64,000 nt of DNA from Stegostoma tigrinum (Eukaryota), in NCBI RefSeq assembly GCF_030684315.1, contig NC_081371.1, positions 5,721,550 to 5,785,549 of the forward strand, in the 5' to 3' direction. Below the pieces are notes generated by a model that made no database searches, was not told the origin of the DNA, and saw nothing but the letters and a program-made list of their open reading frames with translations. Shown in pieces: positions 11,872-57,809 of this stretch. Position numbers and translations under genes: made by a program. Within the stretch, counting starts at the first letter, position 1, and each line of letters begins with the position of its first letter.

Positions 11872-12037
11872 AGTTGCTGGAAAAGCTCAGAAGGTCCGGT
11901 AGTATCTGTGATCTCTGAGGAAGGGTCACCGGACCCGAAACGTTAACTCTGATTTTCTCATCACAAATGTGCTGAGATTTTCCAGCAACTTCTGTTCTTG
12001 TTCCCGATTCACAGCATCTACAGTTCTTTCAGTTTTC
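11872..12037. mobile_element. Asymmetric palindromic mini-PLE (family B)
   Basis: AGTTGCTGGAAAA..CTCAG is inverted relative to CTGAGATTTTCCAGCAACT. TSD AGAAATTTACAGT / AGAAATATACAGT (11859-11871 / 12038-12050). Confidence 0.85.
11915..11944 (+). ncRNA. Minimal hammerhead ribozyme motif (PLE type)
   Basis: CUGAGGA-A-GGGUC(ACCG)GACCC-GAAAC-GUU: intact core boxes, perfect 5-bp stem II, palindromic AACGUU in place of stem III. Confidence 0.7.
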
Positions 12038-12789
12038 AGAAATATACAGTGCTGTAAATGGTGGTTCAGTATTACAGCATACAGGCTGCATAACTAAGCG
12101 AAATTCCCTTCTCCTGCACATGCACTGTGATGAATCCCTGCCTTTAAAAAGCAGACTGAAATTCTGGAGGAGAACCACAGACAGGAAAATTTTGCAGCAC
12201 ACTCTCTCATTGTTAGGGCATACTCATAGCGGTTGATAACCACTAATGTATAGTACAGTGCTTCACTTTGTATACTGTTCTTTTCCAGACACAAAATGTC
12301 CAAACAAATTCCACTCTATGGAACCTATGATTCATTTAGAATCATTTCTCTTAAAGTCACAATTTTCAAGAACACAATCATAACTTGCACCGAGGGCCTG
12401 TGGTCCTTGAAAAGCTTGGCTAGTTCTAGAGCACGAGTCTTCAGCATTACAATCAGGTTGTTGTTAGGATTCACAGCCTTTACTGTAACCAGAGCGTTCT
12501 GCACTTGTCCAGTGAAGTGCATCTTATTGGTTAAAGACTTGGCATCTAGACTGAGGAATGCAGGACAAGGCTGAGATGGATTATTCACTCAGTATTACTG
12601 GTTGAAGACATGCTTCAACACTGTTTATTATGCACACGTTGGGTTGCAATAAAATTGACAATACAGATGTTTACAGAGCTTTATACTACCTTTTTTTTAA
12701 TCTAGTATCATCTGTGACAGCTCTGATCTGGTTAATTGGTGTTGGATTGCTTAGCTCTGTCTACGACATGCAGTTTAGCATGCTTGCAG

Positions 12790-13950
12790 TCCTGTGCTTA
12801 GCTTCAACTTTTTGGTATGTTTTGTGCTGTTCCTGGCAGGCTTTTCTCTACACCTCATTGAATAAGAGTTCATTCCCTGGCTGGATGATTAGTGTATAGT
12901 GAGAAATATATCAGATGATGTGGTTATGGATTATGATTAAATGCAATTCTGCTGCTGGTGACCAAAGTGCCTCACAATTAACCAGTTTTGAACTACCAAA
13001 TCTCAAGCCCAAATACAGATAATGAACGGTAAACTCAGTATAAAGCAAAGACTTCATCACCCTATAACTATAGAGTGGGCACTCCTAGTATAAGAAACAG
13101 ATACATCATGGATGGATTGATGAGGACAAGGTAAAATAGACTTTTCCTTCTTTGGTTCTCGTATCACTGCCACTGATATATTCTGGCACTCGTCATTACG
13201 AATGGGCTTGCGCAAGTAGTAGGAATGCTACTGAGGCAATCTCAGTGATAACTTCCCCAGCAAGGGCCCATTCTCTGTCCTTGCTACCCTTAACTGTTTT
13301 TCCAAGTGGTATTCAATATGAAGAAATATTCATTCATCAGCTCAAAGAGGGCAGGTTAATCATTGGAGATTAGCCTGTCTCTGTTTCAACTGATTTCATC
13401 AACCTTCATGAGCATTCCCAATGTATACCATCACAGTACCTGCTCTCATGAGTATGTTCTTCCAGCAGGGCAGGGTCATATTTAGGTTTAGTAATGCAAG
13501 GGTCTGAGACCAACTGGTATGATTTTCAGATTGTGACCATGCCAGAGAGGTGCTTGATTAGTGTGTGGAACAACTCTCCCAATTTTGGCTTTCCCCACTT
13601 GCTAGTGAGGACTTTGCAGGGTTAATTGGGCTGTTTTCTCCTAAGGTAGATAGTATGTGGCTTCTCTAGTATTATTCATATTGAGCATTTTCATAGCAGT
13701 TGCCGCCCTTTCAAAAGCCAGTTAATAGTCAACCACATCGTTGAGAGAGTTTGGAGTCTCGTCGGTCAGACTAGGTGATGATGATAGATTTATTTCCTTA
13801 AATAATATCAGTGAGCTAGAAGTTTTTAAGTAGCTTCATTGTCTTTATTACTGCACACCAGTTTTCTTTTTAAAACTTAACTAATTGAATTTAAATTTCC
13901 CAGTCATCACAGATGGATTTCAGCTCACGTCTTTTATTCATTAGATCATT
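12790..13950 (-). mobile_element. Old LINE relic followed by SacSINE1/DeuSINE-like segment
   Basis: CAGTTAATAGTCAACCACAT..GGAGTC..GGTCAGAC..AGATTT..TTCC at ~13720-13800 matches 22470-22550; upstream part resembles the 39240-39800 relic. Confidence 0.5.
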
Positions 13951-16666
13951 CAGTCCTCAAGAAGTTTTACCAAGTCTGGTAAAACAGCTGTAATTTTTCC
14001 TTTTTGGGACTAATTGTGAGAGTGGACTACTTTACGTATGAATTAATACGCCACTTCAACCACCTAGAAACCTTGCCCGATCTCAGTCCAATCCCCTTCA
14101 ATGTTGACTGGCAAGCTTTGGTGAATTTCCACCTATTGTAGGCCTTAGCACTTTGTCCCAGGTCACCAGAAGCTGCAGGTCAATCAGAGTCCAGCAACTT
14201 CTGGCTTCTAAAAATTGTTGTTCGAACATAACTCCTCAGGGGATCCAACAGCATGAAGTTAAATGTTTTATTTCTTGTTGAGGAAATGGGTCTGGGGAGA
14301 GCGAGGTCAAAGGGATCTCAGGCAAAGACAGGGGATGGCTTTCAGAGGACCTCTACCTATGCCTCTTATTGCACCCAGGTTGGAGTAATTAGAGACCCTC
14401 CCCCTAACCCAGTAGATAGATCATCCTGGTCTCTCAGTTGGGAAACTAGCCACATTTTATATCCAGTTGGAAAACAGGTAATTAATGAGGTGGTGAGTTC
14501 AGGCACTTATGATGTTAATTCACATTCAATGATCTTGTGCCGGGTCAAGCAAGTTCCTTATGGTCCTTCTGGCATAGAACTACATACTGGGGATGTGGTA
14601 AAAGAGGCCAAGTATTTCTCCAAGTCCAGCTCATCCAATTATTTCCCCCTTTTCCTCATCTCTCTTGCCACCTCCAGGGAGAGGAATATTCTTCCATTAT
14701 TACGGTGTGAAACAGAGCTCTATAACAACATTATTCCAATTATACTCATATTCTTAAGGTAGATCACGACCAATCTGACATTTTTACTGCTGATCCAAAT
14801 AACTGAGTACAAATTAAATATCACAGTTGGTACTTCAGCTGCTGCTATTTTAATGAACACAGATCATGCATCAAAGACTGGCCTAGTCTGCCTATATGGT
14901 TAGTCACCTGCTGGCCTTGCTAACTGAACTAGTGTAGGAGCTTGCTACCCTTGTGTGTCATGTATAGAAAGTTTCCAAACTTTTCTTCAGAGGTGCCTCT
15001 GACCGATGAGAAAGATGCGGATGAAATCACACAGCTGACCATGTATCATTGCAGTCAATGATAAAATATGGCAATATCATGGGAAAACATGGAAACTGAA
15101 GCACCAGAGGAGGAATATAAAAGCTGCCACTGTCCAAGTTAGCAACAATTTTGTTTTTGTTGGCCCGGGCCTTACATGAATACCTAAACTTGCCAATTCA
15201 GTGGTTTCTCAATTGCTAGTAACTACTGGCTGTGACCAACCAGTGGGGAGATTTGGCAGTCAAACAATCAATACGCGCACTTTAAATTTACAGCAAGCTG
15301 GCAAAATTATTCAGTATAATTCCCGAAATGTGCAGAGATGCTCACATTAAGGCAGATTTTCCAAGGGTCCTCGCAGCCTGTCAGAAACAAGATTCAGTAA
15401 TTGAATTTGCTTTTAATTGTAGAGAAGTCTTTGTATTAATTGATGCCTCACAGACACTGCTAAACAGATCATGAAAAGGCTGTTCCAAGTTGGTAGACAA
15501 AACTAACAGCTGACTGGAGCTTCTCTGACTGAAATATGATGCTTTTCAAGTTCTCAGTGGATAGATAGCAGTTACCAGGTCAGTTTTTGTACTAGCTGCT
15601 TTTGAGACACTCAAACCAGCATTTTGATTTCTACCATGCTAATCCTTGGGTTTTAATTTTGCTGGCATGACTCTTGTGCAGCAAGCTTTATCAGAAGTGT
15701 TTTGAAAGTTCATATTGACATAATAAATTTTATTCCATCAACTTCTGTCATTGGATCAGAGAACTTCATAATTTGATCAGAAAAGATGTTCCTTTAATAA
15801 ATCCTTACTGGCTGTCATTTATTGTCCCACAATCTACTAAGTGACAATTAATTTTTTGCTGGATTACAGACTCTAGATGTTTCTCTTGTACAATCTAACT
15901 AGTCATAATGACTGAGTATATTCCATATTCCTGTTTTCAGCAGATATGCAACAGACCACTCATGTCCAATGCAGATTTAAAGGTTGTAGGGCAGAACCCC
16001 AATATTTCTATTCTTTCTTCACTCAACAAGCTAAATGCATCCCCTCAATCTGCTGAAATTTTTTTTTCCATCAATACCTCAATGTCACTGGTCCTTCAAT
16101 ACTTATGGCAGTGGGAGAAATCCTGTCACTGTATACAGCTGGTGGATGGAAAAAATGTTTAAGTTGGATGATGTATATAGTGTGAAGGGTTTGTCTGAAT
16201 ATGTAAATAAGGTAGTCTACATCATCAGAAGAATTATAGGACTGTTGAGAGGTAGTTCTTTCTGGAAGCCCTGTATGAACATGATACCAGAATGAGAGCT
16301 GTGCCATAATACTTACACAATCAAGACTTTAACAAATTTAAGGTTTCACAAAAAGTTATTCTGTGGCACACTGCACATGCATCAGGATCAGAATGAATGC
16401 TAAATAAACAAGAATGATTCATGAATTTTAATCTTCTCCAAATATGCCAGAGCTTCAGTAATTTATGGGAATGGTGAATCAAGTGGGGATGTTCTTCTTA
16501 ACACATGAATCATTTTGTAAGGGAAGACCATGCATGGCGTTAGGAAGAGATCTAACAGGTCATTTCAGATGATCAAGAAAACATTAATTTCACTGTACAT
16601 ACTGGCTCTGTAATCCAGAACCACAAATGCATCATTGACTGGACTAGGAGATGTACTTTTCCAAAA

Positions 16667-16980
16667 GGGGTGGCACAGTGACTCAATGGTTAGCACTGCT
16701 ACCTCACAGCACGATGGTCCTGCGTTTGATTCCACATTCTGATGACTGTCTGTGTGGAGTTTGCACATTCTCCCCGTGTCTGCGTGGGTTTCCTCAGGGT
16801 GATCCAGTTTCCTCCCACAATCCAAAGATGTGCAGGTTAGGTGGACTGGCCATGCCAAATTGCCCATGGTGTTCAGGGATGAGTCAATGAGGGGGATGGG
16901 TCTGGGTCTGGGTGGAATGCTGAGGGTCAATGCGGACTTGTCGGGCCGAAGGCTGTTTCCACACTGCAGGGCTTCTATGA
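16667..16980 (+). mobile_element. HE1/V-SINE-like tRNA-derived SINE
   Basis: tRNA-like head (GGTGGCACAGTGACTCAATGGTTAGCAC; B-box-like GTTTGATTCC), V-domain core GTGTGGAGTTTGCACATTCTCCCCGTGTCTGCGTGGGTTTCCTC, CR1-like tail ending TCTATGA. Confidence 0.88.
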
Positions 16981-17518
16981 ATAATGAAATCAGAGGTTTG
17001 GTAAATGTAAACTGAAGTGTTTATGTATTTCATTCTTTGCTGAAACAACAAAGGTTTGTAGCCTTTGAAAAAAGGCTGGGCTTAAGAGGTTTGTAGACTA
17101 CATTATGATTCAACAGGCCATAAATATTAGATTATTCTATTGAATGTTCAGAAAACAGCAAAGATACCACCAACAAAGCAGAGATGTCATTTGAGATTGA
17201 TGGGATTTGACACTACAACCGATGTGTAAGGGAAGGAACAGATTACAGCAGATTGTTGTGTGTTCCTACAAGCAAGGCACGAACAAGGTTATTGCACAGA
17301 CCCTGTTGAATTTGTTTTCAGTATGAGTAATGAATGGTGCTGAACATTGTGCAGTCATCAGTGAACATCCCTATGTCTGATCTTATGATAGTGGAAAGGC
17401 TATTAATGAAGCAGCTGAAGATGGTTAAACATAGGACACTATCTTGAAGAACACTTGCAGAGATATGCCTGAGATCAGATGACTGACCAACAAACACAAT
17501 CATCTTCCTACGTATCAA

Positions 17519-20500
17519 AGATAGTAGGAACTGCTAATACTGGAGAATCTGAGATAACATGGTGTGAAACTGGATGAACACAGCAGCCAAGCAGCATCAG
17601 AGGAGCAGGAAAGTTGGCATTTCAGGTTGAGACCCTTCTTCAGAAATGGCGGGAGGGAAAGGGGATTCTGAAATAAATAGGGAGAGAGGGGGAGGCGGAA
17701 ATAAGATGGATAAAGGAGAAGATAGGGCGAGAGGAGACAGACAGATCAAAGAGGCGGGGTTAAAGCCAGTGAAGGTGAATGGAGGTGGGGAGTGAGGGAG
17801 GGGATAGGTCAGTCCAAGGAGGACAGACAAGTCAAGGAGGCGGGATGAGATTCGTGAGTAGGAGATGGGGATGGGACTTGAGGTGGGAGGAATGGTTAGG
17901 GTGGCGGGGACAAGCTGGGCTGGTTTTGGGATGTGGTCGGGGGAGGAGAGATTTTGAAGCTTGTGAAGGTCACATTGATACCGTTGAGCTGCAGGGTTTC
18001 CAAGCAAAACATGAGATGCTGTTCCTGCATCTTTCGGGTGGCGTCATCGTGGCAATGTAGGAGGCCCAGGATGGACATGTCGTCCAAGGATTGGGGTAGG
18101 CGTTGAAATGGTTTTGCGACGGGGAGATGTAGTTGTTTGTTATGAACTGAGCGTAGGTGTTCCGCAAAGTGGTCCCCAAGCTTCTGCTTGGTTTCCCCAA
18201 TGTAGAGGAGGCCACAACGGGAACAGCGGATACAGTATAGCACATTAACAGATGTGCAGGTGAACATCTGTTTGATGCAGAAGGTCTTCTTAGGGGCTGG
18301 GATGGAGGTGAGGGGGGAGGTATTGGGGCAGGTGAAGCACTTGCTTCGGCTGCAGGGAAAAGTGCCAGGGGTGGTGGGGCTGGAGGGGAGTGTGGAGCGG
18401 ACAAGGGAGTCATGGAGAGAGTGGTCCCTCCAGAATGTAGATCAGGGTGCGGGGGGGGAAACATGTCTTTGGTAGTGGGGTCAGATTGCAGATGACAGAA
18501 ATGATGGAGGATGATACATTAGATTTGGAGGCTGGTGGGGTGGTACATGAGGATGTGGGGTATTCTGTTTTGGTTATTATTGCGGATAGGGGGTGTGAGG
18601 GATGAGATGCAGGAAATGCGGGAGGCACGGTTGAGGCCATTTTCGATCACTGTGGAGGGCAAGTTGTGGTCTTTGGGGAAAATAGGACATCTGGGATGTT
18701 TGGGAGTGGAATACCTCATCCTGGGAACAGATGCAGTGGAGGCAAAGGAATTGGGAATGGGAGATGACCTTTTTACAGGAAGGTGGGCGAGAGGAGAAGT
18801 ATTCTAGGTAGTTGTGGGAGTTGGTAGGCTTAAAATAGATATCTATTTCCAGGTGGATGCCAGAGATGGAGACAGAGAGGTCCAGGAAGAAGAGAGAGGT
18901 GTCTGAGATGGTCCAGATAAACTTAAGGTTGGGATGGAAGGTATTAGTGAAGTGGATGAACTGTTCGAGCTCCTCGTGGAAACAGGAGGCGGCGCTGAAA
19001 CAGTCATCAATGTAATGGAGGAACAGATGGGGGGAATAGGGCCAGAGTGGCTTTGGAAGAGGGATTGCTCCACATATCCTACAAAGAGGCAGACATAGCT
19101 TGGGCCATGCGGGCATCCATGGCCTACCCCTTTGTCTGTAGGAAATGGGAGGAATTAAAGGAGAAGTTGTTGACGGTGAGGATGCGTTCGGATAAGCAGA
19201 TGAGAGTGCCAGGGGAGGGGGAACTGGTTGGGCCTGCGGGACAGGAAGAAGCGGAGGGCCTTTATACCATCTGCATGGGGAATGCAGGGATATAGGGACT
19301 GGACGTCTATAGTAAAAATGAGGTGTTGGGGACTGGGGAATTGTAAGTTCAGGAGGAGGTGGAGAGCGTGGGTGGTGTCACAGACGAAGGTAGGTAGCTC
19401 CTGGGCCAAGGGGGAGAAAATGGAGTCAAGATAGGTGGAGATAAGTTCAGTGGGGCAGGAGCAGGCTGAGACAATGGGTTGACCAGGGCAGTCAGGTTTG
19501 TGGATTTTGGGAAGGAGATAGAAGCGGTGCCGGGTTGGGGAATGATGAGGTTAGAGGCTGTGGGTGGCAGGTCATGAGGTGATGCGGTTTTGGATGGTTT
19601 GGGAGATGATGATTTGGTGCTCAGCGGGTGGAGTCATAATCAAGGGGGGGCGATAACAGGAGGGGTCAGAGAGCTGGCATCTGACCTCTGTGATGTAAAG
19701 GTCAGTATGCCATACTACTACTGTGCCTCCCTTATCTGTGGGTTTTATGGTGAGGTTGGGATTCGAGGGATGGCTGCAGGTTCTGTGGGGGAGAGGGTGG
19801 AGTGGGTGAGGGGGTGGAGAGGTTGAAGCGATTGATGTCTCGATAACAATTAGAGATGAAGAGGTCAAGGGAGGATAGGAGGTCTTGGGGTGGTATCCAG
19901 GAGGAGGGGGTGCATTGGAGGTGGGTGAAGGGGTCAGGAGGAGGGAGGGTTAGGCACATAGTTAAAAAAATAAGCACGGAGGTGGAGGCAACAGAAAAAC
20001 TGCTCAAAGTCCAAACGAGAGTTGTATTTGTCGATGTGTGGGTGGAGGGGGACAACGGTGAGTCCTTTATTGATGGCTGACCGTTCATCCTCAGTAAGGG
20101 GGAGGTCTGGGGGAACAGTGAAGACTCGGCAGGGCTAGGTACTATTGTCTTGACTGGAGACTCTGGCTGTGAAGGCAGTGAGTGGAGCAACGGCCGCTAA
20201 ATCGAGGATGTCGGTGGTAGCGGCGTCCTCAATGTCTGCGTTGGCCTCGGAAACGGATGGCATCGGTTGTACCGGAAGTGGCGTACAAACAACTACACCT
20301 CCCAATTGTGAACCATTTCAACTCCAACCCCACTCCTTGGACAACATGTCCATCCTGAGCCTCCTGCATTGCCACGATGATGCCACCCAAAAGATGCAGA
20401 AACAGCATTGCATATTTCGCTTGGGAACTCTGCAACCCAAGGGTAGCAATGTGAACTTCACAAGCTTCAAAATCTCCCCTCCCCCGACCACATCCCAAAA

Positions 20501-20870
20501 CCAGCCCAGCTAGTCCCCGCCTCCCTAAACATTCCTCCCACCTCAAGCCCCATCCCCATCTCCTACTCACTAATCTCATCCCCCCTCCTTGACTTGTCTG
20601 TCCTCCTTGGACCGACCTCCCCCCTCCCTAACTCCTCATCTCCATTCACCTTCACTGGCTCTAACCCCGCCTCTTTGATCTGTCTGTCTCCTCTCACCCT
20701 ATCTTCCCCTTTATCCATCTTCTCTCCGCCTCCCTCTCTCTCCCTATTTATTTCAGAATCCCCTTTCCCGCCCCCATTTTTGAAGAAGGGTCTTGACCCG
20801 AAACATCAACTTTCCTGCTTCTCTGATGCTGCTTGGCCTGCTGTGTTCATCCAGTTTAACACCGTGTTAT
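17519..20870 (-). mobile_element. Penelope-like element (Neptune-type, family A): decayed RT + GIY-YIG on minus strand with ~586-bp inverted terminal copy
   Basis: RT motifs IFTIDVQSLYPCIPH, LHYIDDCF, FLDLSV. GIY-YIG NVLYCIRCSRCGLLYIGET..HFAEH. Arms 17554-18140 / 20285-20870. Degenerate TSD TTCCTACGTATCAA / TTCCTATGTGTCAA (17505-17518 / 20871-20884). Confidence 0.93.
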
Positions 20871-20959
20871 TTCCTATGTGTCAAGTTTATCGCCAAACAG
20901 CAGAGATTTTGCCCCCTAATTCCCACTGATTCCAGTTTCGCTAGAACATCAATGGTTGT

Positions 20960-21640: not shown

Positions 21641-21807
21641 CAGTCTACGAGTAAGAGGTGAATTCCAATTGCTTCACACATGTAATCTATCAACTGGAGC
21701 AAAGTCATTAGTAGTATCTTCATTTCCATCTGGTGTTGGAAGAAAGGAGTACTGCTCCAAATAAGCAAGGAACTATAATCATTGTATTGCAATCTACCAG
21801 AATTCCA

Positions 21808-22053
21808 GAGACAAAAACAGAAATTGCTGGAAAAGCCCAGCAGGTCTGGCAGCATCTATGGAGAGAAGTCAGAGTTAATGTCTCGGGTCAAGTGACCTTT
21901 CCTTCCAGAACCAGTTCTGAGGAAGGGTCACTCAACCGGAGATGTTATCTCTGATTTCTCTCCACAGATGCTGCCAGACCTGCTGGGCTTTTCCAGCAAT
22001 TTCTGTTTTTGTCTCTGATTTACAGCATCTGCAGTTCTTTTGGTTTTTATTTA
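21808..22053. mobile_element. Palindromic mini-PLE (family B)
   Basis: ~105-bp inverted arms meeting at CCAGAA-ccag-TTCTGAGG, ~36-nt tail on right arm only. TSD CTACCAGAATTCCA / CTATCAGAATTCCA (21794-21807 / 22054-22067). Confidence 0.9.
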
Positions 22054-23474: not shown

Positions 23475-23645
23475 AAAATGGGAACTGCAGATGCTGGAGA
23501 ATCCAAGATAACAAAGTTCTGGGCTGGAAGAACACAGCAGGCCAAGCAGCATCTTCGGAGCACAAAAGCTGATGTTTCGGGCCTCGACCCTTCATCAGAA
23601 AAGCTTTTCTGATGAAGGGTCTAGGCCCAAAACGTCAGCTTTTGT
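23475..23645. mobile_element. Palindromic mini-PLE (family A) nested in an older PLE 3' end (~23170-23750)
   Basis: Perfect centre CCCTTCATCAGAAAAG|CTTTTCTGATGAAGGG (axis 23603/23604). TSD ACTTCACATGTTA / ACTTCAAATGTTA (23462-23474 / 23646-23658). Confidence 0.88.
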
Positions 23646-23661
23646 ACTTCAAATGTTACCT

Positions 23662-24951: not shown

Positions 24952-25063
24952 GTAGTTGGTCGGCTCGCCGAGCTGGTTTGTTGTTTTTGCAGAAAAACAA
25001 TGAACTAGCTTGGTGAGCCAACCAACCATGACCCAAGCTACAAATCTACTCTAAAACCTTACA
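24952..25063. mobile_element. Palindromic mini-PLE (family C)
   Basis: GTTGGTCGGCTCGCCGAGCTGGTT inverted to AACTAGCTTGGTGAGCCAACCAAC. Tail CTACTCTAAAAC shared with 44466-44478. TSD AAGCCAACTGTT / AAGCCAACTATT (24940-24951 / 25064-25075). Confidence 0.75.
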
Positions 25064-26215: not shown

Positions 26216-26429
26216 ATAATACATCAATACTTTGTTATTCATTATTTGTTATTCAATGAGCAGGGACAAGAAGTGGAGGCTGAAGGAGTAGTGAAAACAA
26301 AGCAGAAGGAGGCCAGGACAGTTGCCACATTGAACATCCTACCATCAGGTTATATTGTTCTATTAGAAAAGTTAGATACTATGGTTCGCACACAAAGCAG
26401 AACAATGGCTTTTTTGTAAATTAACAGTG

Positions 26430-28480
26430 AAAGTCATATCAGAACTTGAGTAAAGCCAATTAAATTTATCTTACTTATCTTTGTAACTTTCTTGATAATT
26501 CAAACAAATTACACTCTTGACAAAGTATCAGCACCACATTGTTCACATGATAGGGAAATGTAAAGGCTAAGGCCATAATAACAAACCCCTCTGAAACAGC
26601 ATGGCATTTTGGTTTTAGATATTTCCCATAGAGGATGGGGGATTATAATCAGTTTACACCGATGTACCCATGATGGACATTAACTTCAAAATGTTTAAGA
26701 TCGAACATTAATTCCAATGTTTCCACCACAGAATATCCCTTTAGGAGTAGATTTAGTCAATAGAAAAATATCCTACTGGCCTCCCAACTTACCTTCTTAC
26801 AACAGGACTGTATCTAACCTCAAGTTACTAGCACTGATTGCTACTTTGAAGTGAAATTAAGAGCAAGTAACACCGCTTCATTGATCAAAATGGTTTTCTG
26901 CCTGTCAGGCACTGCTTGACACTGCTCTGACTATACGATGTTATCTCTCTTTACAGTCGGTTTGTCAGTGGGGCAGCAATAGTACTGAAGTTTATATTAA
27001 ACTGGCAATGTAAACCACAAATCTCCCAATACTTTATAATTCTTTGTTTCATTTTAGTGGTAGGAATTTCACCGAATCTTATGATTGGCTGTTCTTGACA
27101 GCTTCTTTCCTTGCATTACTGTCTATCCTAGGTAGGTTGTTTGTGCTTTTCTGAACTCATTTTTCAGGAGCTTTATTATTAAATCAGCTGACCACAATAT
27201 TTTAAAGATAGTATCTAACTGTTTCAAGTGCTTCTTCCAAGTGTTAGTGCATACTATCATTTCATCAGGGTAAACTACAGTATTTCCGGTTACTGTTTGA
27301 TTTGTCTCTAGAATACGGCCTGCCATTTTTTAGCTGAATGGCTTAACTAGACACTGGAAAAGACCAGCTGGGACTGACAGTGATTGACATCTCCCTGGCT
27401 CAAGATATTAAAGGAACTTTCAATTAACAAATCTATTCTGGTATGAAATATTCCACTACTGACTTTGTCAATACAATCTTCTAAAACGAGGAATTGGGTA
27501 GTAATTTGCCTTTTGCAATTGCATTTCTATAGCGAATGCAGAATCTCCGAGCCATCAGGCACGGGCAGGAAAATGACTGTGGAAACCAGCTACTTAAATT
27601 GCATTAAATTAGGTGATTTTTCAATATGTATTGGATTTCTCTTTTACTCAGGCAGTTAACTGGAGCTGGATAAGGATGCTGTTTCATTGCAGAGGTTATT
27701 CCTACATTCATATCGTATATGGCTAAATTTGTGGACACTAATTTGTTTCTAGAGATTCCTTTAAATTCTGAGAGTAACCATGTTAGGTGTCCTCATTGTT
27801 CTGCTTTGTGTGCGAACCATAGTATCTAACTTTTCTAATAGAACAATATAACCTGATGGTAGGATGTTCAATGTGGCAACTGTCCTGGCCTCCTTCTGCT
27901 TTGTTTTCACTACTCCTTCAGCCTCCACTTCTTGTCCCTGCTCATTCTCCTCCCAGCGATTCAGTCATGACACGGTTTGAAATGCCACAGCCAATTCCTT
28001 TCCAATCTGTGGTATCAATAAAAAAGTTACTTTACCGGTACTTTCAGCTACCTTATGTGGACCATGAACTATGTTTTCAATGGCATATCCTGTAAAGGAC
28101 TAACACATCATCTCCTGATTGAAATGATTTGGTACTGGTTATTTCTTTGATGTTGGTTCAAAAGTTCAAAGATGTTCCTGAGCCACTTTGCAGGCTTCTA
28201 AGAGCCACTCGAGAACACAAATACAAAATCTAATGTGGTGGAATAAATCCTCTAAGTTCTTTTTTAAATCTCTGATTAATTTCAGAAGACCTCATTTCAT
28301 ATCTATAAACAAACTGAATAAAAGAAATGAAACTGGTAGACCTCTCAGGTGAATCTCTAGCCCCTCATTCTAATAATGAGATTATTAATGCAATTACGTT
28401 CCGACCACAGTTTTGAGGATTTGATCGTTCCATTCTAAAGTCCATTGTATCGGTGAGTGATAACGCAAGGCATACAATTC
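26430..28480 (-). mobile_element. Decayed Gmr1-like Gypsy pol (integrase C-terminus, then RT, then RNase H)
   Basis: ORF 27123-27326 VVYPDEMIV..TWKKHL..L..ADLII...K.EF......YLG (RT); ADTLSR at ~26515-26535 (RNase H end); integrase GPY-type FQSGDDVLVL..GP near 28050-28130 lies upstream of RT. Confidence 0.7.
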
Positions 28481-29869: not shown

Positions 29870-32800
29870 CTCCCATCAGGTGATAGCAGCAACCGCAGCA
29901 AGCAGACCAGTGGCATCACAGCTAGCCCTGTATAGTGGAGAGGACAAAACATAGTACAGCAATAGTAACTGGAGATTCAATAGACAGGGGCAAGATAGGT
30001 GCTTCTGTGGCCATGACAGAGACTCTAGGATGGCATGTTGCCTCCCTTGCACCAGGGTCATGCATGCCTTTAAGCAGGTATTGGGCATCTTGAAATAGGA
30101 CGGTAAACAGTCAGAAGTCATTGTCCACACTACACAAATAACATGGGTAGCAAGAGTGACAAGTCCTGCAACAACAATTCAGGGAGTTAAGTAGTAAATG
30201 AAAAGTTAGGAACTCTAGAGTAGTAATCTTAGATTACTGCCCATGCAATGTGCTATTAAAACTAGTAACAGAGACGTAGTACAATTGAATGTGGTTAAAG
30301 AGCTCGTATGGGGGATTGGGAAGAACGGAAGGGCTTCGGATATGTGGGTCATTGGGATGTCTCCCAAGAAAGGTAGGATCTGTACAAGGAGGGTTGCACC
30401 TAAACTGGAGGGGCGCCATTATCCTGGCAAGGAGATTTGATAATGCTGCTCAAGAGGGTTTAAACTAGTGCGGCAGAGCGTGGGAACTGGAGCAGTAGGT
30501 AGCTAAGTATAGTGACAGCAGAAGACCTTGAGTCTAAGGCAAATATAGCTATGAGGAAGAGCAGTCAGGGAGAGATTGCTGAGTTCAACAGAACTGGAGG
30601 CTTGGACTGTATTTGCTTCAATGAACTTGGAGTCTGGATTAAGGCATGCAATTATGATGCTGTTACTATCACAACAGACATGGTTGAAATAGGGACAGGA
30701 CTGGCAGCTTAATGTTCTGGGATATCAATGTTTCAGATGAGTCAGAGCAGGAAGCAAGCAAGGTAAGAGCGTTGCATTACTGGTAAGGGAGCATATCAGA
30801 GCTGTGTTGAGGAAGGACATCCTGAAGGGATGAACACACTGAGGCATTATGGGTACTGCTCAGGAATAGGAACAGTGCAGTACACGTTAAGATTGTACTA
30901 CAGACATTCCAGTTACCTGCAGATCGATGAAGCGATGTGTAATCAGATCTTGGAAAGATGTGAAAATAACAGGGCTGTTGTGGTGGATGATTTTAACTTC
31001 TCCCATATTGACTGGGGCTGCCTCAGTGCCAGGGTTTGGTTGTGGAGCAATTTGCTGTCAGGTGTGTTCAGCAGGGATTTTTGAAACAATATGTGGGTAG
31101 TCCAACAAGGAAGGGACCAGGTATTGGGAAATGAGCCTGGCCAGGTGATCAAAGTTTCAGTGGGGTAACATTTTGGGAATATTGACCGTAATTACAAAAG
31201 TTTTCAGATTCTTCTGGCAAGAGTGGACCTTGGTTGAAGGCCAACTATAACCAAATTAAGTAAGAATTAGAGAATATGGAATGAAAGCAGCTGTTTAAAG
31301 GTAAATCCACATCTGACATGTGGAAGTCTTGTAAAGACCAATAGATTATTTGCAGGATTGGCACGTTCCTGTGAAAATGAAGGACAGAAATGGCAGGATT
31401 CGGAAACTTTGAATGACAGGGGAAATTATCAGCTTAGTCAAAATAAATCAAACCATACCCAAGGTCTAGAAAACTAAAAAACAGACCAAATCCTGGAAGA
31501 ATGTAGAGTAAGTTAGAAGGAGCTTAAACAAAGGGTTAAAAGGCACATTGAAATGTCCTTGGCCAGTAGGATTAAGGAGAAACCCAGGCATTTCATACAA
31601 TATATAAGGAGCAAGACAGTAGCTAGGGAACGAGTAGGCCCGTTCAAGGATAAAAGAGGGAGGTTGTGTATGCAGCCAGAGAAATGGGCGAGATCCTTAA
31701 TGAGTACCTTACATTGGTATTCACCAAAGACAGGGTTGTGAGGGTTGTTGATGTTAGAGGAAGGTGTGTGAATATTCTCGGTCAGGTCAACATCATGAAG
31801 GAGGAAGTGTTGGGTATCTTGAAATACATTAAGGTGCATAAGTCCCAGAGCCAGGTAGGATCTATCTGATTTTACTGTGGGAGGCAAGGGAGGAAACTAC
31901 TGGAGCCTCAAAAGATGTCTTTGTATCCTCTTTGGCCTCAGATGAGGTTCCAGAGGACTGGAGAGTAGCCAATGTCATTCCTTTGTTTAAGGGAAACAGA
32001 TAAGCGAGGTAATTACAGCCAGCGAGCCTGACATCAGTGGTGGGGAAGTTGGTGGTGAAGATACTGAGAGACAGGATTTATTCACATTTGGAAGTGAATG
32101 GACTTGTTAGTGATAGCAGCATGGGTTTGAGAGGGATAGTCATGCATCATCAACTTCATTCAGGAAGTGACAAGAATGATTGATGATGGAGCAGCAGTGG
32201 GTGTTGTCTACGTAGACTTTAGGAAGGCATTTGATAAGATACCTCGTGGCAGATTGGTACAAAAAGGTACAGTCTCATGGAATCCAGATCAGCTGGTTAG
32301 ATGGATACAAAACTGTTGTGCCATAGAAGACAAAGTAAGTGGAATGGCGCTTTGCAGAATGGAAATCACTAACTGACAGTGTTCTGCAGGGATCAGTGCT
32401 GGGACTTTTGTTGTTTGTAATATATGTATATATACTGAAAGTGTGGATAGTCTGTTTACTAAATTGTGGATTACTAAAATTGTGGACACTCACTGGATCA
32501 TCGGAGGTTGAGGGGCAATCTCACAGAGGTTTATAAAATCATGAGGGGCAAGAGTAGGGTAAATAGGGAAGGTCTTTTCCCCAGGGGTGGGGGTATCCAA
32601 ACCTAGAGGGCATAAGTTTAAGGTGAGATGAGAAAGATATAATAGGGGTCTAAAGGGTAACTTTTTCACGCAGACTAGTGCGTACATGGAATGAGCTAGA
32701 AGAAGTGGTGGAGGCTGGTACAATAACAACATTTAAGAGGCATCTGGATGGGTATATGAAGAGGAAAGGTTTAAGAGGGATATAGGCTACATTCTAGCAA

Positions 32801-32884: not shown

Positions 32885-32994
32885 TTTTAAGGCTATGAGC
32901 CATGTGCTGGAAAATGGGATTAGAACATAGGGTAATAAAATGTGAGGCTGGATGAACACAGCAGGCCAAGCAGCATCTCAGGAGCACAAAAGCT

Positions 32995-33022
32995 GACGTT
33001 TCGGGCCTAGACCCTTCATCAG
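32995..33022 (-). ncRNA. Minimal hammerhead ribozyme motif, left arm
   Basis: Minus strand CUGAUGA-A-GGGU(CUAG)GCCC-GAAAC-GUC. Confidence 0.72.
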
Positions 33023-34845
33023 AGAGGGGGATGGGGGGAGGGAACTGGAATAAATAGGGAGAGAGGGGGAGGCGGACCGAAGATGGAGAGTAAAGAAGAT
33101 AGGTGGAGAGAGTATAGGTGGGGAGGTAGGGAGGGGATAGGTCAGTCCAGGGAAGATGGACAGGTCAAGGAGGTGGGATGAGGTTAGTAGGTAGCTGGGG
33201 GTGCGGCTTGGGGTGGGAGGAAGGGATGGGTGAGAGGAAGAACCGGTTAGGGAGGCAGAGACAGGTTGGACTGGTTTTGGGATGCAGTGGGTGGGGGGGA
33301 AGAGCTGGGCTGGTTGTGTGGTGCAGTGGGGGGAGGGGATGAACTGGGCTGGTTTAGGGATGCAGTAGGGGAAGGGGAGATTTTGAAACTGGTGAAGTCC
33401 ACATTGATACCATATGGCTGCAGGGTTCCCAGGCGGAATATGAGTTGCTGTTCCTGCAACCTTCGGGTGGCATCATTGTGGCAGTGCGGGAGGCCCATGA
33501 TGGACATGTCATCAAGAGAATGGGAGGGGGAGTGGAAATGGTTTGCGACTGGGAGGTGCAGTTGTTTGTTGCGAACTGAGCGGAGGTGTTCTGCAAAGCG
33601 GTCCCCAAGCCTCCGCTTGGTTTCCCCAATGTAGAGGAAGCCGCACCGGGTACAGTGGATGCAGTATACCACATTGGCAGATGTGCAGGTGAACCTCTGC
33701 TTAATGTGGAATGTCATCTTGGGGCCTGGGATGGGGGTGAGGGAGGAGGTGTGGGGACAAGTGTAGCATTTCCTGCGGTTGCAGGGGAAGGTGCCGGGTG
33801 TGGTGGGGTTGGAGGGCAGTGTGGAGCAAACAAGGGAGTCACGGAGAGAGTGGTCTCTCCGGAAAGCAGACAGGGGAGGGGATGGAAAAATGTCTTGGGT
33901 GGTGGGGTTGGATTGTAAATGGCGGAGAAGCCTCCGACACTTCCGCCATTTACAATCCGACCCTACCACCCAAGACATTTTTCCATCCCCTCCCCTGTCT
34001 GCTTTCCGGAGAGACCACTCTCTCCGTGACTCCCTTGTTCGCTCCACACTGCCCTCCAACCCCACCACACCCGGCACCTTCCCCTGCAACCGCAGGAAAT
34101 GCTACACTTGTCCCCACACCTCCTCCCTCACCCCTATCCCAGGCCCCAAGATGACATTCCACATTCAGCAGAGGTTCACCTGCACATCTGCCAATGTGGT
34201 ATCCTGCATCCACTGTACCCGGTGCGGCTTCCTCTACATTGGGGAAACCAAGCGGAGGCTTGGGGACCGCTTTGCAGAACACCTCCGCTCAGTTCGCAAC
34301 AAACAACTGCACCTCCCAGTCGCAAACCATTTCCACTCCCCCTCCCATTCTCTTGATGACATGTCCATCATGGGCCTCCTGCATTGCCACAATGATGCCA
34401 CCCGAAGGCTGCAGGAACAGCAACTCATATTCCGCCTGGGAACCCTGCAGCCATATGGTATCAATGTGGACTTCACCAGTTTCAAAATCTCCCCTTCCCC
34501 TACTGCATCCCTAAACCAGCCCAGTTCATCCCCTCCCCCCACTGCACCACACAACCAGCCCAGCTCTTCCCCCCCACCCACTGCATCCCAAAACCAGTCC
34601 AACCTGTCTCTGCCTCCCTAACCGGTTCTTCCTCTCACCCATCCCTTCCTCCCACCCCAAGCCGCACCCCCAGCTACCTACTAACCTCATCCCACCTCCT
34701 TGACCTGTCCGTCTTCCCTGGACTGACCTATCCCCTCCCTACCTCCCCACCTACACTCTCTCCACCTATCTTCTTTACTCTCCATCTTCGGTCCGCCTCC
34801 CCCTCTCTCCCTATTTATTCCAGTTCCCTCCCCCCATCCCCCTCT

Positions 34846-34873
34846 CTGATGAAGGGTCTAGGCCCGAAACGTC
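34846..34873 (+). ncRNA. Minimal hammerhead ribozyme motif, right arm (predicted cleavage after C34873)
   Basis: CUGAUGA-A-GGGU(CUAG)GCCC-GAAAC-GUC; palindromic ACGU replaces stem III; stem I only ~2 bp (CU/AG). Confidence 0.72.
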
Positions 34874-37029
34874 AGCTTTTGTGCTCCTGAGATGCTGCTT
34901 GGCCTGCTGTGTTCATCCAGCCTCACATTTTATTATCTTGGAATCTCCAGCATCTGCAGTTCCCATTACCTCTGATACTATTAGAACATAGGCTGCTTTT
35001 TTTTTGACTTGTGCAGACTTAATGAGCTGAAAAGCCTTTCACTGTAAACCTCTATGACTTTGTTGTTCTGATGTTTTGATGTGCATGGTCAAGCCACTAA
35101 TCAGTGATTTGTGAAGTGTTGCAGGTGTAGGAGCTCGGGAATTACAATCTTGATTTATCCTCCAATCACTCTTTAAAAAAATACAAGTAAGTTTCACTCT
35201 GACCTAAAAGAATCCTTTAGAAACGGGTGAGATCAGCTGAGTGGCTTGTTCAAAGCATGCTTTGCCCCAACTCAGGTTGCTCGTAGCAGGCTTCCCTTGA
35301 ATTGGAAAAGATAAAAACAAAAATATCTCAAAGCCAATTGCTACTGAAAACAACTCAACAGGCTCTACAGCAAAGCAAGCAGTATCAATCATATAATTTC
35401 GAGGAAGGCTTGTTTAAAAACATCAGATATCCACAGTGTACATTTAATGGCTCTGTTTAAAGAAAGCACTCTAGGTAATTCCTTTGAATAAACTCTATTT
35501 TCCATAATCCTACAATCTCCAGCCCTCAAAAATATAATTCTCATCTGGGTTAGTGACAGTGCAGTATTTCAATATTTAAGCATTTCTATTCATGTTAATA
35601 TGATTAATAATTTTAACTTGGTCAGTTGCTGAATATGGAATAATAGCTATTTTAAAATAACAGTACTTCACTTAGGACCCTATTGTCATACTAAGCTTTG
35701 CAGCTGCAGTTTGGCTCACAGCCGACAATTCAGACTGAAGTATGTTGGTGAAAAGGAACTCAATGCACTTCGCCCAGTAGATAAACTTATTGATTTCACA
35801 GTCACACAGCTTATTCCACACCCCAGTATGAGTTCCCCTTTATATTTTTAAGTCACTTAATTAATCAATTAATCTCAGTCAGTAGCATAGTAACTGACAG
35901 GGCTATTACAATTATTATGCCACTCATAATACTTGTATAAATATGGTGCAATGAATTATTTAAAGCAGCAATTGCTGAAAGGGGCAGATAATTTGCACCT
36001 TACTCAGCATTTTAGTTAAAGTAAATATGATAAATTACTTTCAACTCGGTTAGTTGCATGAAAATGAAGCAATAGCAGTTTTAAAAACAGAGTACAGCAC
36101 TCGGCACCCTGTTTCCATCTTAATCTTTCAAGGGTACAGTTTTGCCTTGGGCTATTATAATTTTAATGCCAGTCAGGCTCTGTATAGTAACAATGATGAA
36201 TACACAGCCTGTTAAATCTCACCTTGTGGATGGTATATATATTCTGCAGCAGTATTATGCATCCACTTGACAATAATTAGGACTATTTAAATATTATATG
36301 ATTATTTCAAAAGTGCAGCTTCATTTGCTGGATACCAACACCCCATGTTATAGTCAACTTATGCTGTATTTTCATGCATATATATGCAGGAAGTAAAATG
36401 TCCAAAATTAAAAATGTGATAGTTGTAAGCATAGCCTAAAGGAATAGTGTTGATGTTGGGACATGAAAATGATGAGACAAGTCATTATAGCAGTTCCAAA
36501 GGTTTGAAATGAGAGAAGGACTAGAACATTGAAAAAGATCATCATTTCCCTCATGATTTTTAAAAAAAATTAAAATGGTATTGTACGTTTAGTATATATC
36601 AGATAAAAGTGTTTAATTTAGCAGGTGATAATGGGGTGAGGACACAGACTGGAAATGGAACAATATGGATAACATTAAAATTTTGAAAATAGTTTGAGAG
36701 AAGGATAAATTAATTTTTATTGGAATAAAGGAGCAACAGAAAAGATTCTGCTTCCTTTGCTATTGTTTGGGATTGTAATGTTGCAATAAACATTGCTGAA
36801 AAGAGTCATGCTGTCAAATCTTTTCAAAAGAATCACAAGAACACTAAATTTCAGAGTGTAGAACAGTTTGTACTACATGAAAAGAGTCACATTGGTTAGC
36901 AAGTGGACTCTTGATTGATCGCGTACTTGTCATGGAGAATGGATTTTATAATGTGCTAACTTCAGCCAGAAAAGCACACTACACTTAAAGAGAAGTGGGA
37001 GGATATTTAGAAAAATCAGAATTTACAAT

Positions 37030-44300: not shown

Positions 44301-44694
44301 AAGGAAAACTGGAAGTGAGGTAATCCAGCTCAACAGACTCCAGAGTTTAAACAACAGGCGGGAAAACAATGGCACTTTGTTGGAGGCTGCACTGACAATG
44401 TTACCCGGCATGGTAATGAAACATCTGTGAAACAAATCAGCTTGGCGAGCCAACCAACTACAACCCTACTCTAAAACGTTAGCGTTCTGCTTTGCCTGCT
44501 AACAGTATAGCCCCTTGATACAATGTTTCAATTTTGAGAACTTTGTGTCTGCTGCTGCCTGCAAACATTTTTGTAATCTCCAAGCATTAAAAAACATCTT
44601 TTAAAGGGGACCACACACTCTTTCCCCACTATTTTAGAAACAAATTCTAATGTCCTGCCTTCCAATTCAGAAGTACCATTTGAAATTCGCAACA
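41321..44694 (-). mobile_element. Internally deleted Gmr1-like Gypsy element (LTR, SCAN-like gag, Zn knuckle, protease region, partial LTR)
   Basis: Gag WPETKW..LIQTKL..A.EVF..LS......Y..VK.AILNAY.LVPEAYRQ.FR...K.PGQ; CFNC knuckle remnant ~42440; GEVIVGV protease region. LTR 43465-44694 (TG..CA on minus); LTR-end copy 41321-41425. Possible 4-bp TSD ATAT/AGAT. Confidence 0.8.
44100..44482 (+). mobile_element. PLE 3' fragment (family C) inserted in the Gmr1-like LTR
   Basis: Frameshifted GIY-YIG C-terminal-like DNIKI..QAKQRQAWYSTKKAINKH..SIYTP; decayed hammerhead CTGACAA-TGTTACC..GGTAAT-GAAAC-ATC (44392-44425); tail shared with 24952-25063. Confidence 0.72.
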
Positions 44695-53847: not shown

Positions 53848-54168
53848 TGATTAGATTAGATTCCCTGCAGTATGGAAACAGGGCCTTTGGCCCAACAAGT
53901 CCAAATTGCCCTTTGGGACATTCCACCCAGATCCATCCCACTACAACCCACCCACCCCCGAACACTACAGTCAATTTAACATGGCCAACCCACCTAGCGG
54001 GCACATCTTTGGACTGTGGGAGGAAACCGGAGCAACTGGAAGAAACCCACGCAGACACGGGGAGAATGTGCAAACTTCACACAGACAGTTCCCTGAGGCT
54101 GGAATCGAACCTGGGTCCCTGGCGCTATGAGGCTGCAGTGCTAGCCAATGAGCCACCGTGCCACCCAA
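53848..54168 (-). mobile_element. HE1/V-SINE-like SINE, well preserved
   Basis: Minus-strand head GGTGGCACGGTGGCTCATTGG, B-box GGTTCGATTCC (54101-54111), V-domain core, (ATCTA)n tail. Confidence 0.92.
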
Positions 54169-55062
54169 TTGGTGCTGTGGCTTCTTGCGGTGTGAATTCA
54201 GTCGTTATTCAAATATTATAAAGATGACTCTCAATCATCCTCAATGGCCCAAAATGTCCTCCACTTCAAGCCATGCCCATCCCACCACAATTGGCCCCTC
54301 ACATCCTCCATGCCAAATTACGCCCTTCACTCGTCCCCAGTCATCCCAACATCCCACCAACCCAACCCACGCTTGGCCACCCTAAATGGCCACAATTCTC
54401 CTTCATAACCTGTGCCTGAAACTCACCTCCAGCACAGTCCCTTGTAGCCCATCTGTCAAATCATAAACCGCCACTCATTTTCATGGTTCCTTTTGATTCC
54501 TATGTCAAATCATGCCAACCCACATTCTCCAATTATTACCCTTTTCCCTGGCAACCTCCATTAAACATCACAGTAACAAGACAAGCTCAGATAAAATAAA
54601 ATTGTAGTTTCTATTTGTATCCATTACCGATGGAAGATATTTTTAAAAACTCATTTACGCAGCCTATTCAATACACCTAAATCCTTTACAATCTTCCATC
54701 CCTTATTAAATTAGTTGTATTCACAACTGAAATTAAAGACAGTGTAAAGCTCACGTCTTTTTTAAATATATTTTTGATTGTGGACTGGAAAAGGACTGCT
54801 TTATTTAAAAAAAAGGATTGTTGAAGGACAGTTGAACTTTTGCAAAAGGAAGTAACCGGATATTATAATAAGCACTATTTACTCTATAGTGTGTTCAAGC
54901 AATGGGGGGAGTCTTGGACAAACCAAACCCAAGGGCAAAGTATAATCAGGGACAGTAGCTAGCAACAAGTAGCTGATTAGTCTGTGGACTGGTGACTACT
55001 TACCAAAAATAAAAAGGTCTTCTATCTGCCAAAAACTGTGTGAATGACTTACAGGTACCCAA

Positions 55063-57809
55063 ACAAAGTCAAAAATCACACCAGGCTATTGTCCAACATG
55101 ATTATTTGAAATCACAAGCTTTCAAACCGCAGCCCCTTCATCAGGTGCAGTGAGAGGAGAGCACACAGAATTGCATTTATAGACAGAGAGATCAAAGGAT
55201 CATATAACTGGTGAGTGGGGTGAACAACCCTAAAATGGCTGACTGACTGCCTCCTGCTGAATCTTTAATGGTTCATACATTCTTGCATTCTAGAAATTGC
55301 AGACGCAGAGTAGGGAGAACTCTGCTAGAAAAGAGACGCTAGGTTTGATTGATTAAGATGCAAATTCCAGAACCTGTTTCAAGTCACTGCCCCAAAACAG
55401 TTAAAGGTTTCATCAGAGCCTGCATAACTGTTCAAACTTCAAACAGACAGCTGACATCTCAGGTCAGAAACTGAACTGAGGGTGTGAGGCCTTGTCTAGA
55501 ATCTGTCTTAGAGTTTTAGCCTGGGATCAGGTTTGTTTTATTCCGAAAACAGGAATTTATAAAATGGCACACTGACTGATTGTGACTACAAATTGTATGT
55601 TTCTTGAACAAAATAGAGCGTATCCGCAAATAAACAAACAGGTTAGATGAAATGATTCACCCCATTGGTTTATATCTGTGTAAGCACAAGAGGGAGACAG
55701 TACGCTTACGACAGCACACGACTGCTGAAGTGTTCCCTGACTGGGAGGAAGCACTTCTGAATGGTGACTGTTGGACAATGTTGATTCATCCATTGTCATA
55801 GCATCTGCATGGTCTTGCCAATATACCATGCCCTGGGGCTGCTTTGCCTGCTGTGCATGAAATAGACAACGTTAGCTGAGTCACAAGTATCTGTTGCGTA
55901 CATGGTGGGTTGCGTTCCCATGTGCGATGGTAGCATCCAAGTTGACGATCTGACATGTCTTGCAGAGATTGGCAGGATTGTGCGATGATGTGGCTGATGC
56001 TGTCCTGAAGACCGGGTAGTGAACAATGGTCTGTTAAAGGTTGGGCGGTTGTTTGAAGGTGAGAAGTGGAGGCACACGGAAGATTGGGAGTTGCACATCG
56101 TCATTGATGACATGTTGAAGGCTGCAGCAAACAGGGCATCGTTTCTCTACTCCAGGGAAGTTTTGGACAACTCTATTTGTCTTATCCTGGGCCTGTCTTT
56201 TGAGGAGGATGTTGCAGTTTTTCACCATGGCATGTTGGTAGGGACAACTAATGAGTTGAACATCATATCCCGTTCTTATGAGGACATCCTTCAAAATCTT
56301 TCAGTGTCCACTGCATTCTCATCTGAGCAGATCTTGTGTATATGCAAGGCTTGTCTGCAGTGGATGGCTTTTATTAAAAATATGCTTTGGGTGGAAGCTA
56401 GAGAAATACAGCATCATGAGGTTATCCATGGGCTTGCGGTATAGTGAGGTGCCATGGTGTCCGTCCTTGATGGAGATGCATGTGTCCAAGAATGAAACTG
56501 ATTCTAAAGAGTAGTTCATGGCAAGTCTGATGGTAGGATGAAACTTGCTGGTATTGCTATGTATTTGTCTCAGCAATTCCTCTCCCTAAGTCCAAAGGAA
56601 GAAAATGTCATCAATGTATCAGGTGTATAATGTTAGTCGGAGGTTCTGCGCAGCAAAGTAGCCCTGCTTGAACTTGTGGATGAAAATATTGAGATACTGG
56701 GGGACAAATTTAGTCCCCATGGCTGTTCCACGCGTCTGGATGAAGAATTGGTTGTTGAAAGTGTTGTCAGCAAGGATGAAGCAGATGAGTTGTAGACTGG
56801 CGTCTGGAAATTGGCAGTTGCTGGTATTCAGTACTGAGGCTGTTGCAGCCATGCTGTAATTATGGGGGATGCAGCTGTAGAGTGCCAACAGATCTATTGT
56901 GATGAAGAATATTCTGTTCGATTGGTCCGTGGGTGCCGGGTTTGTGTCAGAAATCTGTAGTGTCACAACAGAAGCTGGGAGTTCCTGGCACAATGGTTTT
57001 CCAGATACCCTCAACATAGCCAGAGAGGCTGTCACACAGGTTCCCATTGCCTGATACGATGAGATGTCCAGGTGTTTTGGCCTTGTGTATCTTTGGAAGG
57101 CAACAGAAGTCCCCTATGCCGGATGAGTGCAAGGCATACGCTGTAGGGCTGGATCAAAAGTCTTAATCAGTCTGTTGAGTTGATGGGTGTGTTCTTTAGT
57201 TGAATTAGCAGGCAGTTATCTGTAATGTTCCCAGATGTCCAGTTGTTGTTGTATTATTTTGCTGCTATCCATTATATTCTGTATGATAATGGCTCCTCCT
57301 TTGTCTGATTTGATGATAATGTTGTAATTGGTCTTGAGCATGGATGGCTTTGCGCTGTGCTTAGATGACATTCTGTGCTATCTTCTGAGTTCAGTTGACA
57401 AATCTGGCATTAACGCATCTCCTGACAACTTGAGCATACATGTCGAGCCTGGGGCGGGGCCTTCTGGAGGGGAGAGACTTGGAATGCATTCTGGAATTCG
57501 CAACTTGATCAAAACTTGCATCTCCTTTCTAACAGAATGCTCCACATCCGGCTTTTGCAATTTCTAGAATGCAGGAACAGGCGGCAGTCAGCCAGCCATT
57601 TTGGGTTTGTTCACTCCACTCATACTAGTTGTATGAGCCTTTGCTATGTCTGCCCATCATCCCTCAGCTGATAAACTTTGTGTCTGTGTGCCATCCTCTC
57701 AATGCACCTGTCAAAGGGGCTGCACTCTGAAAGCTTGTGATTTCAAATAAACCCATTGGGCCATAACCTGGCGTTATGCAAATTTTGACTTTGTCCACCC
57801 CAGTCCAAA
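55063..57809 (-). mobile_element. Penelope-like element (family D): decayed RT + GIY-YIG on minus strand with ~240-bp inverted terminal copy
   Basis: CLPKIHK..TPG..IVSG; TIDLLALYSCIPH; FIQTRGTAMGTKF.P.Y.NIF; YIDDIF; VSFLDT; CDSANVVY..WYIGKT. Arms ~55063-55305 / ~57553-57794. TSD ACAGGTACCCAAACA / ACAGGTACCTGAACA (55051-55065 / 57810-57824). Confidence 0.92.
55113..55147 (-). ncRNA. Minimal hammerhead ribozyme motif (family D); decayed partner at 57705-57739 (+)
   Basis: Minus strand CAC-CUGAUGA-AGGGGC(UGCG)GUUU-GAAAG-CUU-GUG; 3-bp stem I CAC/GUG; palindromic AAGCUU stem III; stem II partly decayed to G-U pairs. Confidence 0.62.

Follow-up and report, generated by a model that had tools for sequence, protein, structure and literature searches.

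The double-ended insertions of Penelope-like elements (PLEs) in Stegostoma tigrinum are probably made by an element protein that primes both cut strands from two fixed tail sites, and the palindrome of the minimal hammerhead ribozymes carried by these elements would have its role in pairing hammerheads for self-cleavage. This reading, drawn from sequence comparison, departs from that of the first-pass annotation of the window (the whole stretch of 64,000 nucleotides analysed here), which took hammerhead-linked RNA dimers as the cause of the double-ended insertions. The observation from which that annotation started, minimal hammerheads in four PLE families (A to D), is confirmed, and all five motifs are present in the window at the positions it had given (Table 1). 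The copy that it extended to near 57739 is a second family D hammerhead in which the palindrome is kept and the core is broken.

Hammerhead motifs and their carrier elements

The motif copies are not a matter of chance, since a descriptor of core plus stem II gave 94 matches in 1.064 Mb of unselected sequence as compared to 3-7 in five dinucleotide shuffles. The bases after GAAA are CGU in 51 of these 94 matches, CpG-decay forms of CGU in 27 and GCU in 2. Genome-wide (3.2 Gb), the family A 31-mer has 89,060 exact copies, and the patterns of families B, C and D have 9,463, 2,079 and 789 matches, respectively, with 0 matches to the reversed-pattern control of each family. The comparison with Rfam hammerhead models that the annotation had proposed gave no match, neither in the whole window at E up to 5 nor in 34800-34980 at E up to 10; the Rfam miRNA matches in the window are the palindromes.

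The hammerheads sit in PLE terminal repeats. The family A protein comprises an RT bearing the DKG motif, a CX5CxxC linker and, at its C-terminus, a GIY-YIG endonuclease (Pfam E 0.013-0.052, below the cut-off); in family B the part covered is the endonuclease, which is 56% identical to that of A; family C, which is Poseidon-type, shows the RT end and the endonuclease; and in family D the RT is 32-39% identical to that of family A and the endonuclease is decayed. A CX2-5CxxC linker before the endonuclease, by which Neptune/Nematis-type PLEs are recognised, is present in A, degenerate in the single B copy covered, absent in C and decayed in D. The insertion hallmarks of EN+ PLEs are found, namely an inverted truncated copy, a one-sided tail and a target-site duplication. 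Tandem head-to-tail units, the layout of non-LTR retrozymes, do not occur among the window copies, which are inverted or single. One short tandem was noted at locus L178.

Table 1. Positions of PLE-related features in the window; offsets in the remarks count the C of CUGA as 0, as does the text.
Feature	Position	Strand	Remark
Family A minimal hammerhead	34846..34873	+	Includes core and ACGU palindrome; stem II of 4 bp; cut predicted after C34873
Family A minimal hammerhead, opposite arm of same insertion	32995..33022	-	
Family B minimal hammerhead	11915..11944	+	Inside mini double-ended insertion 11867-12036
Family C (Poseidon-type) hammerhead	44392..44425	+	Decayed at G8 and at stem III CpG
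Family D hammerhead	55116..55144	-	AGCU palindrome
Second family D hammerhead	57708..57736	+	Palindrome kept, core broken
Double-ended family A insertion	32933..34979	.	GIY-YIG end of ORF in both arms
Short-tail arm of family A insertion	32933-33926	-	
Long-tail arm of family A insertion	33931-34979	+	
13-bp target-site duplication, left copy	32919..32931	+	
13-bp target-site duplication, right copy	34980..34992	+	
TATA-like box, family A copy	34812..34818	+	34 nt before hammerhead
Family B mini palindrome	8066..8317	.	Arm starts lie immediately before hammerhead; tails unequal (one long, one short)
Family B mini palindrome	21811..22053	.	Layout as 8066..8317
Family A mini palindrome	23477..23648	.	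Centre just upstream of core
Family D decayed RT and endonuclease reading frames	55560..57113	-	RT 32-39% identity to A
Older family A double-ended element	17512..20873	.	RT and GIY-YIG decayed
Hammerheads of older family A element	17643; near 20780	-; +	
Tiny family A insertion	60633..60716	.	Arms nearly non-overlapping (+50..+95, +89..+127); 15-bp target-site duplication

The CUGANGA core, GAAA and the UH cleavage triplet are present in families A to D, the window copies at 44392 and 57708 being decayed. The claim that the monomer has no closed stem III is borne out in all four families, and positions 15.1-16.1 are palindromic, with ACGU in three of them (A, B and C) and AGCU in D. With stem III left unconstrained, GAAA is followed by CGUC in 138/178 copies of family A, by CGUU in 13/39 of family B (plus 19 CpG-decay forms), by CGUC in 18/40 of family C (plus 20 CpG-decay forms) and by GCUU in 23/33 of family D, and the family majorities for stem III with the cleavage base are ACGU-C (A, C), ACGU-U (B) and AGCU-U (D). 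Family C is hence a decayed ACGU, as the annotation had it. The further claim of a palindrome differing from family to family holds for D against the rest and fails among A, B and C; families A and B share ACGU, and only the cleavage base (C or U) sets them apart. An active hammerhead core leaves A14 and position 17 unpaired. A 6-nt stem III (AACGUU or AAGCUU), absent in A and C, was rejected because it would use core A14 and U17 for pairing. Given these majorities, there is one CG-to-GC swap only, in family D. The palindrome is maintained in four families despite CpG decay. The swap is weak evidence of selection on dimer pairing: it sets D apart from A, B and C and so counts as one event, and 3/9 outcomes of a double base change remain palindromic.

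An extra base between A9 and stem II is nearly invariant, as A in 177/178 copies of family A, 39/39 of B and 33/33 of D, and as U in 39/40 of C; the G (of a G-C pair) that opens stem II was fixed by the search patterns. Stem I, given before as 2-3 bp, has 2 bp in family A as stated, but is longer in B and D (4 bp each) and in C (3-6 bp). It opens with a U-A pair in A and in B, with A-U in C and with C-G in D. Stem II varies in sequence with its pairing kept, as had been noted, and compensatory pairs occur in stems I and II across unrelated flanks. Between the four family representatives, the 11 core bases compared are identical, and no alignment is obtained for the 40-nt flanks other than that of A with B on the downstream side; the comparison is partly circular, since part of the core had served to retrieve the copies.

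Judged by these features, the four families carry minimal type-I PLE hammerheads. It appears unlikely that the motif is no longer a ribozyme here and persists as promoter-downstream DNA, as a protein-binding site or as a passenger, the 5' pile-up described below then reflecting an RT stop at RNA structure. The 2-bp stem I of family A, the burial of its palindrome in a hairpin of -12 kcal/mol (an inactive fold), a cleavage base of U in families B and D, and the failure to find RNA reads ending at the cut site in PMC11167929 all speak for such a loss, against which stands the retention of the core, the extra base before stem II and the compensatory pairs of stems I and II across flanks that are unrelated.

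Two tails and two arms in one insertion

The 3' ends are bimodal in families A, B and C (about +92/+130, +98/+136 and +72/+112) and less clearly so in D; the two tail ends are separated by about 38-40 nt, and every insertion typically has one long and one short. In a set of 545 terminal arms from selected and unselected loci, 114 direct head-to-head junctions were identified, 113 of them within one family. Long-tail and short-tail ends are joined in 103 of these 113 same-family junctions (independent choice 50%; p = 1e-20), likewise in 55/61 from the unselected 1.064 Mb and in 64/68 of a larger family A set, where the cut-offs between long and short tails were chosen by the analyst from the 3'-end distribution and old copies align incompletely. 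One B-D junction lies at locus L144. The double-ended insertions have target-site duplications of 13-16 bp. Among 47 young A pairs, 36 are flanked by a duplication of 13-18 nt (three rows being one segmental triplicate), which marks them as single events; the cut was most likely staggered by about 14 nt.

With regard to upstream reach, the long-tail arm extends further in 36 of the 103 pairs, the short-tail arm in 40, and the two end within 5 nt of each other in 27. Because either arm can reach further upstream, both are separate RT products. That the second arm should instead be a copy-back of the first cDNA, or arise by self-priming on an antisense transcript, with one RNA and one priming involved, is decidedly unlikely. 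Self-priming on an antisense template has been proposed (PMC3846280, partial text), and perfect palindromic centres are common, near-symmetric long pairs occur in some excess and lineage variants are common to both arms; yet the short-tail arm alone has upstream sequence in those 40 pairs and the long-tail arm alone in those 36, so that neither is a copy of the other there, and in most long pairs the two ends are separated by hundreds of bases. The ends are exactly coupled to a modest degree: at -604 there are 38 near-symmetric junctions, of which about 26 are independent, where uncoupled ends would give roughly 9 and full coupling 180. Some half of the long A arms lack a partner.

The arms of a pair disagree at 48 of 753 lineage-diagnostic sites (6.4%), as compared to 34% in shuffled pairs, which assigns both to one source lineage; private variants shared between arms number 0-2 per pair. 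Arm lengths are also matched, with 27 long-long, 24 short-short and 6 mixed pairs where 28 mixed would be expected, thus like with like in 51/57, in a long-arm sample that was partly selected (15 both-long pairs were chosen and some 20 single long arms of the same list left out).

It is in these comparisons that the model of the first-pass annotation, two RNAs paired through their stem III palindromes delivering two templates to one cut, becomes very unlikely. Two templates are possible, given that the arms are separate, overlapping RT products either of which may be the longer; the palindrome has outlasted CpG decay in four families; the hammerhead is intact in most short arms; and the catalytic mutants of PMC11167929 do not test the model because they left the palindrome unbroken. 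A symmetric dimer, however, predicts like ends or free choice between them, and 103/113 junctions are unlike. The rarity of pairs mixing long with short arms (6/57 against 28) counts against it as well, as does a duplex energy for the 4-bp palindrome of only -1.7 (ACGU) to -2.5 (AGCU) kcal/mol, set in family A against the -12 kcal/mol hairpin, and so do the Naiads, which lack canonical hammerheads and have inverted copies with tails (PMC8557442, partial text). A-B, A-C or B-C hybrids number 0/60 among unselected junctions, where about 28 would be expected under free mixing, and, with one nested insertion and four cross-hits discounted, none occurs in a set of 397 A arms; this point is weak because the families differ in age. 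An apparent A-B hybrid at locus L275 was rejected as a nested insertion.

The RNA start and the use of the hammerhead

The 5' ends of short copies pile up about 30 nt after a TATA-like box, which lies at -34 in family A (115/178), at -33/-34 in B (3 copies), at -45/-48 in C and at -37 in D (4 copies). Mini-palindromes of family A centred within 30 nt upstream of the core occur at 7,031 loci, and their ends fall mostly at 0 to -6 (by eye, among 50 listed of the 7,031), in agreement with the larger A arm set. For family C, the box predicted a start near -16 in advance, and 27 of the 50 mini-palindromes listed (of 237) centre exactly there, by eye. In 100 listed non-C copies of family B, the start is preceded by G in 50, by A in 31 and by T in 19; the extra G at 50/100 exceeds the roughly 26% expected from base composition (p = 2e-7), and among 30 B copies inspected, 15 of the 16 with G have foreign upstream sequence. 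An extra 5' G is a known trace of cap copying in other retroposed RNAs.

We infer starts at -4 in A and B (near 34842 for the A copy of the window), at -16 in C and at about -7 in D, with the +1 base of family B forming the outer base of stem I. The pile-up is likely the capped transcription start, making the hammerhead the first structure of the RNA. Since the starts follow the TATA-like box and family B shows the extra G, the RNA used for insertion probably carried a cap and had not been cleaved. An RT stop at RNA structure accounts less well for a pile-up that tracks the box (-16 in C) rather than the hammerhead and that carries an extra G. The TATA-like spacing, the family C start at -16 and the family B extra G are additions of the present analysis.

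Some junctions may record cleaved templates. Both arms end just downstream of the core at 1,375 A loci, and among 50 listed of these, 27 junction centres fall on the four bases after the predicted cut (by eye), 1 on ACGU and 7 on GGCC. As proof of cleavage, such 5' ends were rejected, microhomology or a pause at the hairpin base fitting them as well. In family D, 5/24 junctions centre on the stem III palindrome and 0/24 exactly on the cut.

In the mechanism that we favour, priming of both strands from two fixed tail sites, the protein would make the staggered target cut, and an asymmetric protein-RNA complex would begin the two cDNAs at different tail sites, the far one and the near one. The RNA for both cDNAs would come from one source, and the cDNAs would then be joined head to head. 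Short arms would represent the 5' repeat of an uncleaved RNA copied from tail to cap, giving palindromes of about 230-250 bp, and long arms would be copies from the 3' repeat. One RNA read twice and two sibling RNAs would fit the data equally well; the single-RNA scheme needs strand displacement, because most long arms overlap by hundreds of bases. The palindrome, by analogy with other PLEs, would serve dimer cleavage assisted by protein, in the simplest case between a transcript's own 5' and 3' hammerheads. Cleavage at the hammerhead would remove the cap and would accordingly belong to RNA processing and not to template delivery. A combined scheme, in which cap-proximal hammerheads (of sibling RNAs or of one RNA's two ends) pair through ACGU or AGCU inside a PLE protein dimer, stay uncleaved during copying into one cut and are cleaved later with loss of the cap, is highly doubtful.

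Relation to known elements and significance

Minimal hammerheads of metazoan PLEs with palindromic 15.2-16.2, covariation and low dimer cleavage were described by Cervera and De la Pena in 2014 (PMC4209133, partial text), and dimer cleavage through these palindromes, which the annotation gave as already proposed, is indeed published there; a review repeats the account, and work on such hammerheads by Lunse et al. (PMC5785218) is cited in PMC6765202 and PMC6466107. The motifs analysed here resemble it, so far as that part of PMC4209133 extends, in being type I with no monomer stem III, in the palindromic 15.2-16.2, the extra base before stem II, G10.1-C11.1, the family-wise covariation, the pseudo-LTR location and the proposed dimer cleavage. 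The stems of family A (2 and 4 bp) are shorter than in its Schistosoma examples, and its results and discussion name fish, coelacanth, frog and reptiles, with families A-D unnamed in these sections. With motif and palindrome already known, the finding as first written adds four families.

The closest functional parallel is the Poseidon element PAc of Anolis carolinensis (Frangieh et al. 2024; PMC11167929), which has two internal RT starts matching the tail, cuts and extends both target strands, is predicted to use a protein dimer, and shows protein-assisted hammerhead cleavage alongside insertion from unprocessed RNA that catalytic mutants leave unaffected. It shares with the present families a pseudo-LTR hammerhead that lies upstream of a tail delimited by two RT start sites, and, as proposed for them, the cutting and extension of both target strands and the use of unprocessed RNA. 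The main text on PAc does not assign its two start sites to the two arms of one insertion, a pairing seen here in 103/113 junctions. The PAc ORF begins inside the hammerhead; in family A the corresponding frame stops after 13 codons.

For EN+ PLEs, inverted copies with one-sided tails have been reported, also in Naiads without canonical hammerheads (PMC8557442, partial text), and their repeats carry TATA and Inr motifs, with antisense self-priming proposed (PMC3846280, partial text). The present insertions agree with the inverted pseudo-LTR insertions of these partial texts in the head-to-head copy, the 30-40-bp tail at one end, the target-site duplication and the TATA/Inr-like motifs. They are unlike those descriptions in that many are only about 230-250 bp long, and whereas antisense self-priming or endonuclease resolution is the explanation offered there, two primings on sense, capped RNA are favoured here. 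A literature search, with most subscription papers outside its scope, found no model of PLE twin-priming or of a cap-proximal hammerhead.

Lastly, both the function of PLE hammerheads and the manner in which inverted insertions form are called open in PMC8557442 (partial text) and PMC11167929, and in this respect the insertion anatomy and the predicted start matter more than the motif itself. The genome offers testable coordinates, with a capped start predicted just ahead of the ribozyme and two proposed fixed priming sites, each used once per insertion; the natural ACGU/AGCU pair allows swap tests, and family A alone provides about 89,000 identical motif copies.

A second palindrome within the family A hammerhead

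In young copies of family A, one of four Penelope-like element (PLE) families (A–D) carrying minimal type-I hammerheads, stem II and its loop together constitute a near-perfect 12-nt palindrome (34854-34865), which is absent from the older A subfamilies and from families B and D. Cofolding predicts that two young copies would pair through it into a much stronger strand-swapped duplex, at -39.8 kcal/mol compared to -24.6 kcal/mol for two monomers. The duplex so formed is likely inactive.

Head-to-head insertions elsewhere in the genome

Among 114 direct head-to-head junctions between terminal arms, drawn from selected and unselected loci, a single one crosses families: it joins D to B (L144, G000:C1 near 738667), two families with mismatched stem III palindromes. 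An older family B mini palindrome, a short insertion of two head-to-head arms, has its centre interrupted by an inserted family A element (L275, G000:C1 near 3829546). One double-ended insertion is present three times at a spacing of ~158 kb (L203-L205, G000:C4:13.21-13.53 Mb), and this is a recent segmental triplication or an assembly repeat.

Other repeats in the window

Palindromic and repeated features in the window
Feature	Position	Remarks
Short palindrome	24952-25029	Weak matches to miRNA models; outside families A-D
Dispersed repeat, ~300 bp, three copies	16668-16977, 53857-54166, 58508-58687	73-77% alike
Repeat pair, 1.4 kb each	6118-7505 and 31067-32415	65% alike
Inverted repeats, 153 bp	26255-26407 and 27794-27946	100% identical, ~1.4 kb apart

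The dispersed repeat is probably a SINE, and the 1.4-kb pair probably represents old LINE fragments. The inverted repeats could be the termini of a young DNA transposon.
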